Positions 3,796 to 17,434 of a DNA stretch of 17,434 nucleotides are shown here, in pieces. How positions within the stretch are numbered: the stretch's first letter is position 1; each line of letters begins with the position of its first letter. Source of the stretch: a virus. Position numbers and translations under genes: made by a program. The stretch lies in UHGV virus genome UHGV-1770886, one strand, 5' to 3'. The notes beneath the pieces were generated by a model. That model had not been told where the DNA came from. It saw only the letters and a program-made list of their open reading frames with translations, and did no database searches.

Positions 3796-3852
3796 GTTCT
3801 CCACCTGCAAAAAAGCCCCGAATAACCGGGGCAAATGATGAGTATCGTCCTG

Positions 3853-5594: not shown

Positions 5595-5870
5595 TTACTC
5601 AATAAAGATCATTGGCTTACCGTTAAAACGTTCATGCCGTGTGACCGTCCATTGTTGTCCGTCATAAACAACGCGATCCCCGCGCCGTGGGCGGTATCCC
5701 GAAGAAAACACCACCAGAGAGACCGCAGGTCCGGACAGAGCATTCAGCTCTGCCAGTGTTTCTCCCGGGATCACAGTCATATCGACATCATTAATCGAGG
5801 CTGTCTTTCCCATCTTTCTGACCGTGATCGCATCCATACGCGCTGCCAGCCGGGAAAAGGGATCAGACAT
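5595..5870 (-). CDS. FII: head-tail joining protein (lambda gpFII-like)
   Basis: FSRLAARMDAITVRKMGKTASI and RPRRGDRVVYDGQQWTV parallel lambda FII FDAAIARADETIRGYMGTSATI and LRRGDTLTIGEENFWV. ATG overlaps the stop of the upstream gene (ATGTCTGA). Sits directly before Z. Confidence 0.65.
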   Translation of the reverse strand: MSDPFSRLAARMDAITVRKMGKTASINDVDMTVIPGETLAELNALSGPAVSLVVFSSGYRPRRGDRVVYDGQQWTVTRHERFNGKPMIFIE

Positions 5871-6186: not shown

Positions 6187-6272
6187 AACTGTCTCCGCAC
6201 AGCCCCGTTCAGGGGCTGATTTCAGGTACAAAAAAAGCCCTTACGGGCCATCAGAGTTGTTGTCTGCGACGT

Positions 6273-8231
6273 TTACGCCGTACATTTCACCAGGCCGCGG
6301 TGATCAACTGGCGCAACACCAGCGTCAATACGCACTTTCGTTGTCACGCCATCCACACTGAAGCCCTCCATCTGATCAATATATGGCGTATCCACACCGT
6401 TGAGATAAGCCACTTCAATCGTATCGGAGCCTTTGGACGCAGCCAGGTAGAAGGTGGTCTGGCTGTTATCATCAAGACGAGGCTCTGCAATAACGGTCGC
6501 AAAATCTTTCACCGGGTTAATAATACCGGCGTTAATGTCAGCCCCCTTGACACTTGAGGAGCGAATGACCTGGTTAGCAACAGACTCCATCGCCGTCGGT
6601 ACCAGTACGAACGCAGGACGAATATTCAGATGACGCTCACCCTCTTTCTGAACGCGCATCAACTGGCGGGCTTTATCCAGCGATGCCACGTCCATTGCCG
6701 CGCTCTCCAGTACGTTTGCATGTTTCGCTTTATCGAACAGACTTACATTATCTGTGGAGATTTTCGGGTTAGACGTCAGAATGGCATAAACCAGATCGGC
6801 AATAGTGGATTTCGCCGCACGGCCCAGCTTCATCGGGACATCGGTCAGCATATTCAGATCATCATTGATAATGGCCTGACGGGTGATACTGAACAGCTCG
6901 CCATAGGTCGCCAGTGCAATAGTGGCCTGTTTATCTCCGGTGGTGACGTATTTATATTCTGCCCCTTCACGCACCTGACGCAGAGCACTGAAGCCCCCCA
7001 TACCCACACGATGGGCAATTTTAAAATCAGACAACTGACCTTTCCGCGTCCACTGTTCATAGGTTTCAGGGGCATCTTCCCAGCCCTGCAGAATGGCTTT
7101 GTTCGCAACATCCAGCAGAATATTACCGAAGTCAGACGTACTGTGTGTGAACGCCGCACCGACCATCTGCATCGGGTTATAACTGGAAACACCAATACCA
7201 CGTTCAGTCAGTGACATACGGGCATATTCACGCAGGGTCATCCCGTTGTAGACATTATCACGTTCAGTTTTTTCAAACCCGGCGCGCGCCATCAGCGCCT
7301 GGCGGATCCCGTCCCCCACAAAATTACCGTTACCGGCATAAATATGAGCCGGGGTATTTTTATTGGATGGCGTGGACTCGCGCCCCATCTCGTTCAACAG
7401 CTTTTCGCGGGCCTGCTCCAGCGAACATTCAGGATCGGCAAGACACTGAGCCTGCAACGACTGATAACGCCCGCCAAACATGGCAAACAGATCATTAATA
7501 CCGTTTACACGCGCTTTTTGCTCTGCCAGGACCTGCGCACGGATGCTGTTTTCATCCACCACGGGTGCTGCTGCCTGCACTGGCGTCCGGGAGGCTGCAG
7601 GTCCATCATCCTGTACGCGTGGAGCACTGTTGCGTGGCGGAGTAATCATATTTCGAATGGATTCCGGCATCTTTTTAAATTCCTCTGTACGTTTTGACTG
7701 AATACATGCCATTGCCTTAACGGCTGGTGTCACCTGATCAGCAAATCCCTGTGCCAGACATTCGGCACCGGACATCCAGGTCTCATCCGCCAGCATGGCA
7801 GCAATTTCATCGGTGGTTTTCCCGGTTTTCTGTGCATAAGCGGGTAACAGAACCGCCTCAACTTTATCGAGCAGGTCGGCATAGGTGCGCATGTCCTCCG
7901 CATCACCGCCCGTAAAGCCAAATGGTTTATGAATCATCATGAAGGAGTTTTCCGGCATAATGACCGGGTTTCCCACCATCGCAATGACCGACGCCATTGA
8001 CGCCGCCACACCGTCGACATAAACGGTAATGGACGCACCATGTGTTTTCAGTGCATTAAAAATGGCGATGCCTTCAAAGACATCGCCACCCGGTGAATTA
8101 ATATGGAGATTAATGTGGGTGATATCGCCCAGTGCATTCAGATCACTGATAAACTGCTTCGCCGTAACACCCCAGAAACCAATCTCGTCATAAATATAAA
8201 TATCCGCGTCACTCTGGTGACCTGCCTGCAT
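6273..8231 (-). CDS. prohead protease (ClpP/S14-like) - linker/scaffold-like - major capsid protein in one ORF
   Basis: One uninterrupted frame of 652 codons from ATG 8231 (13 nt after the portal stop). N-terminal ~200 aa look ClpP-like (DIYIYDEIGFWG ... INSPGGDVFEGIAIFNAL ... GVAASMASVIAM ... MMIHKP). A helical Q/E/R-rich linker follows. The C-terminal ~350 aa are of capsid size and position. Upstream track residues 1-87 rejected because they overlap the portal gene. Confidence 0.75.
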   Translation of the reverse strand: MQAGHQSDADIYIYDEIGFWGVTAKQFISDLNALGDITHINLHINSPGGDVFEGIAIFNALKTHGASITVYVDGVAASMASVIAMVGNPVIMPENSFMMIHKPFGFTGGDAEDMRTYADLLDKVEAVLLPAYAQKTGKTTDEIAAMLADETWMSGAECLAQGFADQVTPAVKAMACIQSKRTEEFKKMPESIRNMITPPRNSAPRVQDDGPAASRTPVQAAAPVVDENSIRAQVLAEQKARVNGINDLFAMFGGRYQSLQAQCLADPECSLEQAREKLLNEMGRESTPSNKNTPAHIYAGNGNFVGDGIRQALMARAGFEKTERDNVYNGMTLREYARMSLTERGIGVSSYNPMQMVGAAFTHSTSDFGNILLDVANKAILQGWEDAPETYEQWTRKGQLSDFKIAHRVGMGGFSALRQVREGAEYKYVTTGDKQATIALATYGELFSITRQAIINDDLNMLTDVPMKLGRAAKSTIADLVYAILTSNPKISTDNVSLFDKAKHANVLESAAMDVASLDKARQLMRVQKEGERHLNIRPAFVLVPTAMESVANQVIRSSSVKGADINAGIINPVKDFATVIAEPRLDDNSQTTFYLAASKGSDTIEVAYLNGVDTPYIDQMEGFSVDGVTTKVRIDAGVAPVDHRGLVKCTA

Positions 8232-8244
8232 CCTGAACCAGGAA

Positions 8245-9753
8245 TTATTCTTCGGACTGGTCGTCGGTGTGCTGCGGCTCCTGTCGTTTCGTTGCGGCAC
8301 TGCTGCCTCCTTTATCACTGGCCGGATCGGTATCAAATACCAGATCCAGCTTGCGGTTTTCATCAATTTCGGCCTTGCGCCGACGTTTGACATCATCTGG
8401 ATTACGACCACCTGCACGTACCCAGTCTGATTCTGTCGCCGCTCCACCACGAATCTGAATTTTCCAGGCCTCAGCCTCCTTAACAGGGTCAATCCACGGC
8501 ATCACCGGTCCGGAATACACCGCGGTATACAGTGAAGAACGATCAAGATCGCGGGGTAGCCTGATAACACCGGATGCCACAGCCTGTTTCAGCCAGGCAC
8601 GATACATCGGGCGGGTGACGGCACCAATAAACCAGTCCTGCAGGATCAGGTAGCCATCAGTGGATTCAACCAGCTCCTGACGCTGGGCGCTGTAAGTGCC
8701 GTTATAGTTGCGCGCTGTACTGGAAAAACTCAGACGACTGCCCGCCGCCACGGCACGCAACTGACCATTACGAAAAGTTTCAAGATTAGGATTGGGGCGA
8801 TCCGACTTCACCATTCCGATTTCTTCGCCGGGTTTCAGATCGTCGTAAATAATGCCTGGCTGAATGGTAAGCTCGCGTTCCTTATCCTTGCTGCCATTAC
8901 CATCCGGTTCATAGCTCTGCCCGTCGCCTTTCCGGATGTACATCCCCAGAGCAGCGGCGATCCTTGCTGCAGTCAGCTCAGAATCTTCATACTCTTTCAG
9001 GGCACTGAGGCGGATCAGCACACCGGACAACAAAGACGTCCCGCGCATCTGGTGCAGACGGCGAACAAATTTAAGATGCAGCATTCGCTCTGCATCCACT
9101 TCTTTGGTTTCCATCTGCCGTCCGGATACGGGACGGCTTTTATACACCAGATATTTTTCGGGACGCCCCCAGTCATCAACAAACACGCCCTGATTCAGCC
9201 TGTTGCTCTCATCACTGGTCATGGGAATAAAGTCCGGCTCGAGCGCCTCCAGCCAGAAATGAACACCGGCAGAAGGCGTCAGGCTGTTTATGCGCCCGGA
9301 AACCATCTGGGCAAACACCTCACCATCGCGCAGCCAGGTACGCAACATCAGACGTTCCAGCATCGGACGGGTAAACTGCCCGGTGACTTCCGGACTGACA
9401 GACCATTCACTCCATCGGGTGCGTATCTCCGCTGCCAGATCACGGGCAATGGCCCCATTGCGTAATACCGGATGTGGCTCGACAATAATCCCGTTTTTCC
9501 CCACCACCCGTTCTTCCAGCTTGTCAAATACACCAATGACCAGATCGTGGTTGTTATCAAGGTAACGGGCCTGCTCACGTAACGACACGGCCCCGTACTG
9601 GCTTAACTGGTCGGCAGTTCGGTTTTCCCGCCGGGCTTTGTGTGTCCGCGTCGTTTTTACGGCCTCATAAGCCTGGATCACCGCACGGGAACGCAGCCTT
9701 GCCGCTTTCCATCCTGGTGAAAAAACGCCAATCACATCATCAAGAATTGCCAT
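8245..9753 (-). CDS. portal protein
   Basis: 502 aa from ATG 9753, which overlaps the gpW stop (ATGA). Size and position (after terminase and W, before protease/capsid) match lambda gpB. Not aligned residue-by-residue to lambda B. Confidence 0.8.
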   Translation of the reverse strand: MAILDDVIGVFSPGWKAARLRSRAVIQAYEAVKTTRTHKARRENRTADQLSQYGAVSLREQARYLDNNHDLVIGVFDKLEERVVGKNGIIVEPHPVLRNGAIARDLAAEIRTRWSEWSVSPEVTGQFTRPMLERLMLRTWLRDGEVFAQMVSGRINSLTPSAGVHFWLEALEPDFIPMTSDESNRLNQGVFVDDWGRPEKYLVYKSRPVSGRQMETKEVDAERMLHLKFVRRLHQMRGTSLLSGVLIRLSALKEYEDSELTAARIAAALGMYIRKGDGQSYEPDGNGSKDKERELTIQPGIIYDDLKPGEEIGMVKSDRPNPNLETFRNGQLRAVAAGSRLSFSSTARNYNGTYSAQRQELVESTDGYLILQDWFIGAVTRPMYRAWLKQAVASGVIRLPRDLDRSSLYTAVYSGPVMPWIDPVKEAEAWKIQIRGGAATESDWVRAGGRNPDDVKRRRKAEIDENRKLDLVFDTDPASDKGGSSAATKRQEPQHTDDQSEE

Positions 9754-13510: not shown

Positions 13511-13546
13511 TGTTTAAATATAACAAAACCCCGTAAAAACGAGGTT
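13511..13546 (-). terminator. putative rho-independent terminator downstream of the gns-like gene
   Basis: Minus-strand AACCTCG-TTTTTA-CGGGGTT (7-bp stem with one G.U) followed by a U-rich run (TTGTTATATTT). Confidence 0.4.
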
Positions 13547-13609
13547 TATGGGTAATTTGTATTGTTGAATAGCATCTGATGAGAAATTGATGCTAATACT
13601 ATAAACATG

Positions 13610-13955: not shown

Positions 13956-14186
13956 TCAATTCAAGAGTCTCATTGCTGCTTCCAGAATTTCTTCTGAAGT
14001 TACATGTCGATCCGCTGCTACATAAATGACTTTATGATCTCCGGTCAGAGATGGAAACCCTGCAGCCATTACAGTGAGGTGTGTTGTTTCGCCATTTGGA
14101 TATTCACGCATGATGGTGTTAACTCCGGTCATCACTGGCACTACCATTGCTGGTTCAGAGTTAAAAAAAACTATTATTTTTTTCAT
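13956..14186 (-). CDS. hypothetical small protein (76 aa from ATG; track gives an 89-aa GTG-initiated version)
   Basis: ORF track 13956..14225. The GTG start at 14225 would sit inside the terminator U-tract, so ATG 14186 (MKKIIVFFNSEPAMVVPVMTGVNTIM...) is preferred despite a weak SD. AT-rich. No family recognised. Confidence 0.35.
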   Translation of the reverse strand: MKKIIVFFNSEPAMVVPVMTGVNTIMREYPNGETTHLTVMAAGFPSLTGDHKVIYVAADRHVTSEEILEAAMRLLN

Positions 14187-14230
14187 AATGTTACCGTAAT
14201 ATGTGAGTATCCATCGACTAGACACTAAGC

Positions 14231-14250
14231 AAAAAAGCTCCCGAAGGAGC
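14231..14250 (-). terminator. putative rho-independent terminator downstream of the csp gene
   Basis: Minus-strand GCTCC-TTCG-GGAGC (5-bp GC-rich stem, tetraloop) followed immediately by TTTTTT (plus-strand AAAAAA at 14231..14236). Confidence 0.5.
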
Positions 14251-14457
14251 CTTCATTTTCACTTTCTTAAATCTAACGACAGATGGCTAACATTTAAGTA
14301 TTGTGAAATATTATCAAATGTAATCATCATTGATTTACAAAAGATACATTTTGCCCCGAAAGGATTTCTGTCAGAAACATCAAAAGATGATGTTCTATAC
14401 TGAGAACCATGGCAACACGGGCATCTAAAGTGAATATGGTTTGTAATATTTTCTACC

Positions 14458-14670
14458 TCAAAGTGCCACTACATGAACAGCTGCAGGGCCTTTAGGTCCG
14501 TTCTCAATACCAAATTCGACTTCCTGATTCTCAGTTAACGTTTTGAAATCGTTGCTCTGAATAGCTGAGAAATGCACAAACACATCTTTGCTACCATCTT
14601 TCGGCGTGATGAAACCAAAACCTTTTTCAGGGTTAAACCATTTCACTAAACCAGTCATTTTGTTAGACAT
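14458..14670 (-). CDS. cspI: CspA-family cold-shock protein (70 aa)
   Basis: [38 protein letters not shown]... carries the canonical RNP1/RNP2 cold-shock-domain motifs (KGFGFI, VFVHF). AAGG SD and csp-like leader (AAAGGTAATAA ATG). Paralog call cspI rests on synteny (csp next to Rz) and recalled sequence. Confidence 0.85.
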
Positions 14671-14814
14671 CATTATTACCTTTTGAAGAAGTTAGCCCTT
14701 GGGCAGAATGGTCCGAAAAAAAATATCAGAGAGAAAAACCAACAAGGAAATCTCAAGAGGTACAAATAATAAAATTATAACAATGACTGCTTCAGATAAT
14801 TTTGTAACAAACCA

Positions 14815-14850
14815 GAACACCATTAACGCATGATTAACCAACCATAGCAA
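14815..14850 (-). promoter_or_regulatory. candidate sigma70 promoter for the csp gene with ~145-nt leader
   Basis: Minus-strand TTGCTA (plus 14845..14850), 17-nt spacer, GTTAAT (plus 14822..14827), resembling the cspA promoter (TTGCAT / CTTAAT). AT-rich UP-like sequence upstream. Sequence inspection only. Confidence 0.3.
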
Positions 14851-15033
14851 GGATTACTTTTGTAAAGAAAAACACACGAATGAAACAATAGCTTTATTTA
14901 TTAATAAAACGTGTCATTCTGTCTAATGACCTTTTATCTTACCCTTAAGATTTCAAGGATTTTGACTCATGGAAGAGTCCTTTTTATTTAAATTTCACAT
15001 TCAGCGCTAAAAATAATCCGATTTAATATTAAT

Positions 15034-16061
<1,028 letters not shown>

Positions 16062-16195
16062 GGATATTTATCAGGATTTATCGGTTTCTGAACCCTGGAT
16101 ATGTTAAGCATTCAGCCCGTCAGTGGTAGGACACTGGCGCTCTGGTTAAGGATTATGGGGGATGCTGGCTGAGCTACCCCATCTGAGGATTTGAT

Positions 16196-16435
16196 ATGCA
16201 AAAAGAAGTTTTTATCAATATTACAGCTGACTGCTCATCTCCTGCATCAACAGCAAAAGAAATTGAAGCTCTTAAATATATGATTACAGTAATATTTTCC
16301 GTATTGGACCAGAATGAAAAAAATGGAATCATTCATCAATTAAATGAACATGTAAATAATCCATATATCAAAAGCAATCTGGAAATGCTGCTACCAATGA
16401 AAGATATTGGAAAACCAACTGAAACAAAAGGCTAA
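16196..16435 (+). CDS. hypothetical 79-aa protein on the opposite strand; AT-rich cargo ORF inserted between YdfR-like gene and endolysin
   Basis: ATG 16196 with GAGGAT 7 nt upstream. Markedly AT-rich relative to flanking phage genes. Stop overlaps the stop of the convergent minus-strand ORF. A hairpin CGCGCC-N10-GGCGCG follows at 16482..16503. No family recognised. Confidence 0.45.
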   Translation: MQKEVFINITADCSSPASTAKEIEALKYMITVIFSVLDQNEKNGIIHQLNEHVNNPYIKSNLEMLLPMKDIGKPTETKG

Positions 16436-16746
16436 CAACCAGTAATCGAGTTATCTGAACTGTTAATTTTTATGGTATACCGCGCCTCTGAACAGGGGCG
16501 CGTTTCTGGCAACAGCTCGTCCCCTTCACATAACCCGGCAGCAACATCCAGGAAGACCTGTCTGATGCTCCTTCTGGCTGCAGCCTCATAAAACTCCAGC
16601 GCGGCACCTTCAACACGGTCCAGCGAGATGTCCAGGTCAAAAATTTCACCGTCAAAGCGTTCTTTGTCCTGTAATGCTAAAGTTACCGTAACTTTATTCT
16701 CAAAATTGCGGATCCCTTTCACAATCAGTTCATAGTTTTGAGTCAT
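16432..16746 (-). CDS. hypothetical protein, YdfR-like (between holin and endolysin)
   Basis: 104 aa. ATG 16746 with GGAGAG upstream, 4 nt after the holin stop. Same position and size as the ydfR gene between essQ and rrrQ in the K-12 Qin prophage, as I recall it. Sequence similarity not verified. Confidence 0.5.
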   Translation of the reverse strand: MTQNYELIVKGIRNFENKVTVTLALQDKERFDGEIFDLDISLDRVEGAALEFYEAAARRSIRQVFLDVAAGLCEGDELLPETRPCSEARYTIKINSSDNSITGC

Positions 16747-16750
16747 TGAA

Positions 16751-16966
16751 TTACTCTCCCCGTGCCGCCTTACGACGGTCCTCTCTGATTTTGAAATACA
16801 GGTTAGTCAGATATGTCAGCAGCCCAAACAGCAGACTCCCCAGCACGCCTATTGCCGCCCACTGAGACGGGGAAACCCTGTCCAGCAACTGCAGGAACCA
16901 GTAGCCCGTTCCCACCGCTGACGTGGTGTATGACACACCTGTTGTGATTTTTTCCATCTGGTCCAT
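16751..16966 (-). CDS. S: class II pinholin, phage 21 S-like, with dual start (antiholin/holin)
   Basis: 71 aa from ATG 16966: [71 protein letters not shown], near-identical in the C-terminal two-thirds to recalled S21. Met1 and Met4 (MDQM) mirror the S21 71/68 dual start. GGGAGA upstream. The track's 106-aa N-terminal extension would run through the upstream terminator. Confidence 0.85.
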
Positions 16967-16993
16967 ACCCCGTCTCCCGTTATCCGGAAGCTG

Positions 16994-17032
16994 AAAACAA
17001 TAAAAAAGCCACCAGTTAACTACTGATGGCTC
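16994..17032 (-). terminator. rho-independent terminator immediately upstream of the holin (tR'-like late terminator)
   Basis: Minus-strand AGCCATCAG-TAGTTAA-CTGGTGGCT (9-bp stem including one G.U, 7-nt loop) followed by TTTTTTATTGTTTT, about 30 nt before the holin SD. Confidence 0.6.
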
Positions 17033-17234
17033 TGATAACTCATGCAAGCGTCTCAGACGACCCACTGACACTACCGGTGAGTTTAACGATACCTTCCATT
17101 TGACTGGCTCACTTTTTATGATGATGCCGGTGCATTTATCTCCAGCGCCAGACTTTCTATCTCAACGCCATACGTTACATTTTTGGTAATATCCATCAGC
17201 GTCAGTGCATTTAGTCCCACTGCCAGACTGTCTT

Positions 17235-17434
17235 TTATGGCCTGGAATGCCGGGCCAGTACGATGACGTAGTACCAATCCGGCTCAGTTGCACCACTGAC
17301 CACCACATCACCTTCTGCTGCAATCGCCTGCATCAGGGTATAAGGGGTTATGGCCACCGGACTACCAAACGGCTGCCAGCCCTCCTTCAGTTTTTGTGTC
17401 AGTCGTTTCGCAAGGTCTGACGGCGATGCCGCCC
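17235..17434 (-). CDS. C-terminal fragment of an upstream ORF (start beyond window); possibly the late antiterminator Q or a small conserved pre-lysis protein
   Basis: Open minus-strand frame from the window edge to TAA at 17237..17235: ...LAKRLTQKLKEGWQPFGSPVAITPYTLMQAIAAEGDVVVSGATEPDWYYVIVLARHSRP. Looks more protein-like than the overlapping plus ORF 17205..17420. Ends ~200 nt upstream of the tR'-like hairpin. Confidence 0.35.
   Translation of the reverse strand, partial: AASPSDLAKRLTQKLKEGWQPFGSPVAITPYTLMQAIAAEGDVVVSGATEPDWYYVIVLARHSRP

Follow-up and report, generated by a model that had tools for sequence, protein, structure and literature searches.

The DNA analysed here (hereafter the window) is the whole stretch of 17,434 nucleotides of the virus genome UHGV-1770886. 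It represents the late region of a lambdoid prophage resembling Stx phages; the late operon lies on the minus strand and runs from position 17434 towards position 1. The first lysis gene met in that direction encodes a holin of 71 amino acids (16751..16966, minus strand) which, by its match to PF04971 (E = 9e-33; 112.5 bits against a cut-off of 26) and by its N-terminus M-D-Q-M-E-K, with the dual start M-D-Q-M, belongs to the class II (S21-type) family. It is followed by a YdfR/DUF1327 gene, the gene of a signal-anchor-release (SAR) lysozyme and Rz with an embedded Rz1-like ORF; downstream of Rz there is a cold-shock gene and then the terminase genes, on the minus strand as well. Immediately before the holin gene both the minimum-energy and the centroid folds give a small stem-loop, CUUCCG/GAUAA/CGGGAG (16974..16990, minus strand), over the Shine-Dalgarno sequence; its stem is nearly invariant (three single-base exceptions) and its loop varies among the 34 variants that share this leader. 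This stem-loop probably buries the Shine-Dalgarno of the first of the two holin starts and, by analogy, resembles the start-choice structures of dual-start holin genes.

Further upstream, in the same orientation as the late genes, a hairpin of 12 pairs with the loop AGUUA (17005..17033, minus strand) was recognized by consensus scan, folding and conservation. Read from 17033 to 17005 its sequence is AGAGCCAUCAGU/AGUUA/ACUGGUGGCUUU, with a 9-bp core, GCCAUCAGU/ACUGGUGGC, that includes one G-U pair; five of the 12 pairs are G-C. The U-tract read from the sequence, UUUUUUAUUGUUUU (16994..17007, minus strand, counted from 17007 to 16994), overlaps the base of the stem, where its first three U are also paired, and six U stand directly 3′ of the stem. 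The consensus scan ranks this hairpin as the top terminator-like site of the region 14000..17434. When folded as RNA, the 61 nt around it reach −18.9 kcal/mol against −9.5 ± 2.4 for shuffled sequences (z = −3.85), and none of 200 shuffles folds as well. By its anatomy, i.e., a GC-containing stem, a U-run and the orientation of the operon, the hairpin is an intrinsic (Rho-independent) terminator, and the first-pass annotation of this DNA was right in seeing a strong one here, with a 9-bp stem and a U-tract. The same annotation placed it some 30 nt upstream of the holin Shine-Dalgarno; this sequence (GGGAG, 16978..16974) is only 15 nt from the end of the U-run, and the figure fits better the holin ATG (16966), which is 27 nt away. 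The distance of about 200 nt that it gave from the terminator to the end of a partial ORF further upstream is confirmed, the stop codon of that ORF (TAA, 17237..17235) being 202 nt upstream of the hairpin base.

The partial ORF is the 5′ remnant of nanS-p, the gene of the phage sialate O-acetylesterase (17238..17434, minus strand), and holds DUF1737 and the start of the esterase domain. It matches PF08410 (E = 3.4e-12) and, in BLASTP, residues 11-88 of the NanS-p of Stx2 phage 86 (E = 6e-16); it runs off the edge of the window at one end and meets the above TAA, which is out of frame, at the other. The copy in UTI89 is a DUF1737 pseudogene in the RefSeq annotation. As to the gap between this ORF and the terminator, its length is as described earlier but it is not truly intergenic, since 17258..17116 is the 3′ coding end of nanS-p, accounting for 143 nt of the proposed leader. 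This 3′ remnant (17116..17258, minus strand), established by protein and DNA matches, comprises the last 46 codons and the original stop (TAA, 17118..17116). Of its 46 residues 39 are identical to residues 586-631 of NanS-p (E = 4e-24), and its DNA matches the end of the Stx2 phage 86 esterase gene almost completely. A small ORF within the proposed leader (17277..17119) carries this C-terminal match of 46 residues and shares the stop codon at 17118..17116. The two remnants meet at a deletion junction with the microhomology CTGGCC(C/G)GGCA (17248..17258, minus strand), and from about 17258 the DNA is colinear with that of Stx2 phage 86 through the hairpin and into the holin gene. Since the DUF1737 head and the last 46 codons both derive from NanS-p and the colinearity with phage 86 resumes at this point, about 1.5 kb of nanS-p (residues ~89-585) must have been deleted, with a shift of frame; the deletion was confirmed in the relatives examined. 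The gene order Q, (stx), nanS-p, S and the build of NanS-p from DUF1737, SASA and a C-terminal region have been described (PMC10462455). Here the SASA domain of this three-part protein is deleted and its frame is broken, and nanS-p is, to judge from the sequence, a pseudogene. What separates its old stop codon from the hairpin is a spacer of 82 nt (17034..17115, minus strand), in which scans showed neither a promoter nor a PasA/PasC sRNA gene nor a match to an Rfam family.

The first-pass annotation took the interval 17040..17234 for a copy of the lambda arrangement of late promoter (pR′), short leader and terminator (tR′), and named the absence of a promoter there as what would speak against it. 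A consensus scan for late-strand promoters in 17260..16990 finds none. The best position-weight score in the same interval is 5.2 bits, a value equalled or beaten by 76% of the 270-nt tiles of the window, whose median best score is 6.3 bits, whereas the same scoring gives 14.1 bits for lambda pR′, 12.1 for the corresponding promoters of UTI89 and phage vB_EcoS-640R1 and 10.2 for that of 933W, i.e., 10-14 bits for promoters adjoining Q. The TTGAGA put forward as a candidate promoter element at 17130..17135 is really at 17165..17160, with a spacer of 20 nt to ATAAAT at 17139..17134. The lambda-type combination of −10 and pause element, TAAATT-N6-AACGATGGG, has exact matches in lambda and, in UTI89, behind the Q gene; in the whole window it has no match, even with up to three mismatches. 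In addition, the corresponding interval of Stx2 phage 86 falls inside the intact esterase gene. The pR′/tR′ reading of this interval therefore fails by its own criterion, there being no promoter, and most of the interval is filled by the coding end of nanS-p.

The relatives of this prophage, on the other hand, do have such a unit elsewhere. Over its last 735 nt the window has 99.9% identity to a prophage present in UTI89 and in many other ExPEC strains, and of 5426 complete E. coli genomes 836 cover at least 80% of this 735-nt query. In UTI89 the gene of a 273-aa antitermination protein of the lambda Q family (PF03589) ends 3.4 kb upstream of the holin gene, and the stretch between the two contains a small ORF, a DNA methyltransferase gene, three tRNA genes, two STnc100-type sRNA genes and pseudogenes, together with 17 terminator-like sites against 4.5 ± 2.0 expected. 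Behind the stop codon of this Q gene come TTGATT-N16-TAAATT, whose −10 hexamer has a TG one base ahead of it, then AACGAT, CCCGCCGCCUGGCGGG and six U; lambda pR′ reads TTGACT-N17-TAAATT..AACGAT. Phage vB_EcoS-640R1 has the same pR′-like/tR′ unit and Q, 2.3 kb upstream of the holin gene. Eight distinct genomic contexts encode exactly the holin of the window and share with it 449-467 of the 468 upstream nt. In all eight the same Q gene, of the lambda family, is found at a distance of 2.3-4.4 kb upstream of the holin, a pR′-like promoter starts 6 nt after the Q stop codon and a terminator comes next, the sequence being TTGATT-N16-TAAATT, then AACGAT, AACAAT or AATAAT, then CCCGCC..GGCGGG-T6. A wider sample comprised 50 further loci in which one of five types of Q was found upstream of the holin gene and on its strand; here the two genes are 1.7-9.1 kb apart, and never less than 1.7 kb. 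For Stx phages the location of pR′/tR′ directly downstream of Q, and the production of a short RNA from it in lysogens, are established (PMC7547250), and the 933W record annotates pR′/tR′ immediately downstream of Q. A Q-family gene (PF03589) upstream, which the first-pass annotation had predicted, is thus present in every relative examined and, with its position relative to the window taken from these relatives, the hairpin of the window would not be immediately downstream of Q.

Some details of these neighbourhoods deserve mention on their own. In UTI89 (our locus L001) the tRNA genes are at 7748-7997 and the STnc100-family sRNA genes, which are relatives of PasD, at 8073-8263 and 8541-8750, all of them on the late strand and outside the stretch shared with the window. 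In the K-12 prophage DLP12 (our locus L128) essD is preceded, at a distance of about 110 nt, by a hairpin at 5755-5790, CCCGCCGUCGAGCGGG followed by U. This hairpin is almost the same as the tR′ hairpin found behind Q in the relatives of the window, although the porin gene nmpC separates it from quuD.

The hairpin ahead of the holin gene is maintained in evolution. Exact matches in IMG/VR to a 21-nt pattern taken from the beginning of the holin gene yielded prophage and phage loci which, together with the other loci collected, gave 123 occurrences of this start; the 77 nt preceding it occur in 42 unique variants. All 42 fold as a hairpin at the same position (−11 to −23 kcal/mol) and have at least four U within the 8 nt after the stem; 33 have at least five. 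In about nine of them the U-run is interrupted (CUUGUUGUU or ACUUGUUGU), and termination may be weak in these. When 24 distinct variants taken from other lambdoid prophages are aligned, the window's 12 pairs are formed in 92.7% of cells, as opposed to only 31-72% when the 3′ partners are slid by 1-3 columns as a control. Five of the pairs show changes on both sides (i.e., compensatory changes), such as A-U to G-C at columns 17/35 in eight sequences. None of 500 shuffles of this alignment reaches the values observed for the percentage of paired cells, for the count of cells in which both sides have changed or for covariation, and the measures of pair count and pair type are reached by 10 and 9 of the 500, respectively.

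The partial matches to phage genomes show where the conserved unit begins. The 735-nt query matches 356 records of the phage collection, and only four of these cover all of it. In a group that includes Stx2 phage 86 the match begins at the nanS-p remnant, whilst in the remaining 15 partial matches among those listed (more exist) it always begins at query position 399-401, i.e., at 17036..17034 of the window, which is 1-3 nt before the base of the hairpin. At least five different sequences precede the hairpin, namely the nanS-p end with its spacer, the stop of a 933W p43-like ORF, the PasA/PasC region and two others. In 933W the hairpin begins 9 nt after the stop codon of a hypothetical gene located between nanS-p and S, and in E2348/69 a late-strand hairpin with six T stands just before the holin gene, downstream of the antisense pasA gene and its promoter and far from the esterase stop codon. 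Because homology starts at the base of the hairpin and the sequences upstream of it change, the hairpin goes with the holin gene and not with nanS-p. A holin-proximal terminator is, even so, not universal, as essQ of the K-12 prophage Qin has no obvious hairpin at this position; essD of DLP12 has a different one, about 110 nt upstream, and these K-12 cases are not informative for the element studied here.

If such observations are read together, the hairpin is probably an intrinsic terminator inside the late operon, located between the decayed moron nanS-p (a moron being an accessory gene that was inserted in the operon) and the lysis cassette, and not the terminator of the late promoter itself. 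In the close relatives late transcription would start at the lambda-like pR′, 6 nt behind the stop codon of Q, and, without Q, the transcript would end about 65-70 nt further on at the GC-rich tR′, this unit being 2.3-4.4 kb upstream of the holin gene and outside the stretch that corresponds to the window. It is established behaviour of Q-modified polymerase that it is terminator-resistant. Polymerase modified by Q at pR′ would acquire this resistance, pass tR′, the terminators of the tRNA, sRNA and moron genes and then the hairpin, and so reach the holin, endolysin and spanin genes. Polymerase from moron promoters between Q and S, or leaking past tR′, would be expected to halt at the hairpin, which would keep the lethal pinholin (a protein making small-hole lesions in the membrane) silent in the lysogen. 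With a terminator between the Q region and the lysis genes, the holin gene could be reached only by terminator-resistant polymerase; termination in vivo, read-through by Q and the role of a gate are inferred. Of the earlier proposal that the late operon is under Q-type antitermination, the dependence on Q is retained, given a terminator before the lysis genes and Q upstream of it in the relatives, but the local pR′, leader and tR′ are not.

A further step, to be taken tentatively and as somewhat more doubtful than probable, would be to regard the holin-proximal terminator as a selected ‘safety gate’ of the S21-type lysis cassette. Such a gate would move with the cassette across mosaic joints and insulate the pinholin from the promoters of stx1, of tRNA and PasD/STnc100 genes and of nanS-p, so that only Q-modified polymerase triggers lysis. 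In the relatives tRNA and STnc100/PasD-type sRNA genes do stand on the late strand between Q and S; those of UTI89 are independent transcription units, which the terminator would insulate, the 933W record annotates a tRNA promoter, and PasD2 is present in large amounts in EPEC that grows without induction of phage (PMC8550237). The role is also plausible because Pstx1, the own promoter of the toxin gene, yields Stx1 without phage-induced lysis (PMC7547250). If the gate works, it helps to explain how genes between Q and S (Stx1 from its own promoter, tRNAs, sRNAs) can be expressed in a lysogen without lysis, and variants with a weak U-run would then leak, resulting in tuned spontaneous lysis and toxin release.

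Against this interpretation stand three others, of which the original one is hardly credible any more. That the interval 17040..17234 holds pR′ and a short leader, with the hairpin as tR′ and a 6S-like RNA made in the lysogen, has in its favor that the hairpin is strong and close to the first lysis gene, and that lambda itself has pR′, 6S RNA and tR′ upstream of S. Yet the best promoter score of the interval is one that most tiles of the window reach and is well short of those of the Q-adjoining candidates, the TAAATT..AACGAT-type element is absent, the DNA in question is a coding 3′ end that in Stx2 phage 86 belongs to an intact esterase gene, and the unit looked for adjoins Q in each of the eight contexts, with Q at a distance of kilobases in the 50 others. 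It is less far-fetched, though still unlikely, that the hairpin is a mere gene-end terminator of the moron upstream, be it nanS-p or the 933W p43-like ORF, with no selected role in the control of lysis. It is usual for morons to bring terminators of their own, such sites abound in the Q-S region, and the short distance between the preceding ORF stop and the hairpin in 933W is what one would expect of such an element. The hairpin, however, stays with the holin gene as the gene upstream changes, many phages being homologous from 1-3 nt before it onwards; moreover, it has been kept in the window despite the destruction of nanS-p, and in E2348/69 despite its position behind antisense pasA and a promoter, away from the end of the esterase gene. 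This explanation overlaps with that of an internal late-operon terminator rather than excluding it.

The third possibility is that hairpin and U-run act mainly as RNA, either as the 3′ end of an Hfq-binding sRNA from the nanS-p 3′ UTR or as a stabilizing or processing element of the lysis mRNA. Hairpins with U behind them are typical binding sites of Hfq, and the spacer between nanS-p and the holin gene is known to house sRNAs. Hfq-dependent PasA and PasC map between the esterase gene and the holin-lysozyme operon (bioRxiv 10.64898/2026.05.13.724894), their coordinates in E2348/69 being given in table S6 of PMC8550237. In that strain, however, both are on the strand opposite to the late genes, with their own TTGACA promoter and their own terminators, in a spacer of 448 nt as compared to 150 nt in the window, and blastn-short finds in the window only chance matches of 9-12 nt to them (E ≥ 0.19). 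The hairpin was accordingly rejected as a PasA/PasC terminator, the genes being antisense, their spacer longer and the window devoid of similarity to them. Nor is there a credible promoter near the spacer on either strand, the best on the plus strand scoring 6.3 bits at a position that does not fit, and no Rfam family reaches its gathering score in the hairpin region, where a permissive E-value brings up chance matches only (at best 16 bits against a threshold of 60). An action as RNA seems quite improbable on these grounds, if not to the same extent as a local pR′.

On the plus strand a hairpin GUGAG..CUCAC with UUUUU (17076..17120) abuts the old nanS-p stop codon, and the PasC terminator has the same position in E2348/69; an antisense sRNA in the spacer of the window is unsupported, as a candidate of this kind has no credible promoter and an unremarkable fold (z = −2.06).

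The preferred reading, that of an internal late-operon terminator, can be set beside the systems already known. As in lambda, where pR′, 6S RNA and tR′ follow one another, an intrinsic terminator in late orientation stands upstream of the lysis genes and is presumably overridden by a terminator-resistant polymerase, and the relatives carry a PF03589 Q and a pR′ with matching −10 and pause element. Q antitermination is also found in phages 21 and 82. Unlike lambda tR′, however, the hairpin adjoins neither Q nor a promoter, is not preceded by a Q-binding or pause element and would be 2.3-4.4 kb past the pR′-like/tR′ unit, going by the relatives; from pR′ it would not yield an RNA like 6S, nor one like StxS. 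The latter is made from pR′/tR′ of Stx phages (PMC7547250).

Closer counterparts are the internal or tandem terminators of lambdoid late operons. Luk and Szybalski are said to have reported tandem terminators between lambda pR′ and S in 1983. The logic is the same, and so is the class of position, between pR′ and the first lysis gene, although the sequences are unrelated and the present hairpin is specific to S21-type (class II) holin cassettes. The PasA/PasC locus of EPEC E2348/69 has the same spacer, from nanS-p to an S21-type holin gene, and has kept a late-strand hairpin with six T; it differs from the window, which has neither PasA/PasC sequence nor an antisense promoter, and in the length of the spacer (448 as opposed to 150 nt). 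The Q-S region of Stx phages, in which Q, tRNAs, stx, nanS-p and S follow one another (PMC10462455; 933W record), has the same order of genes and the same nanS-p-hairpin-S junction, but the allele of the window has no stx gene and its nanS-p is reduced to a frameshifted DUF1737 and the C-terminus. In the 933W record the hairpin is unannotated, and no name for it was found in the literature. The holin gene of phage 434 is preceded by a different hairpin, unannotated as well, the 434 record having no annotated terminator before S. The hairpin is best read as an ordinary terminator internal to the late operon. Such terminators have long been known from lambdoid phages, and this one is noteworthy only for its conservation with S21-type holins and its absence from the 933W annotation.

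Two things follow for how such DNA is described. The annotation of this region is corrected, in that the late promoter is not in the window, what looked like a leader is a dead esterase gene, and the switch made of Q, pR′ and tR′ would be 2-4 kb beyond the window edge, as it is in the relatives. In addition, many Stx-like prophages can be said to have a conserved terminator directly before their S21-type pinholin genes.

The late region shows other features of its own. No complete E. coli genome was found to contain the whole window, and a mosaic joint lies at ~16870 to 16400. The first ~565 nt of the late-operon end match the UTI89-type prophage at 99.9%, this agreement extending from the end of the window to at least 16700, and the sequence from 16870 on is best matched, at 98.3%, by another prophage, one of S88/APEC O1. 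Between Rz and the terminase genes, a match to the cspA thermoregulator (Rfam RF01766; 14412..14828, minus strand; 110 bits against a threshold of 78) spans the 5′ UTR and the coding region of the gene of a 71-aa cold-shock protein; the gene is inserted there as cspI is in the K-12 prophage Qin. Further terminator-like hairpins with T-runs are found on the late strand at 13547..13526, 6249..6236 and 3832..3815, within the operon of structural genes, and these three fit an operon that is read by an antiterminated polymerase.
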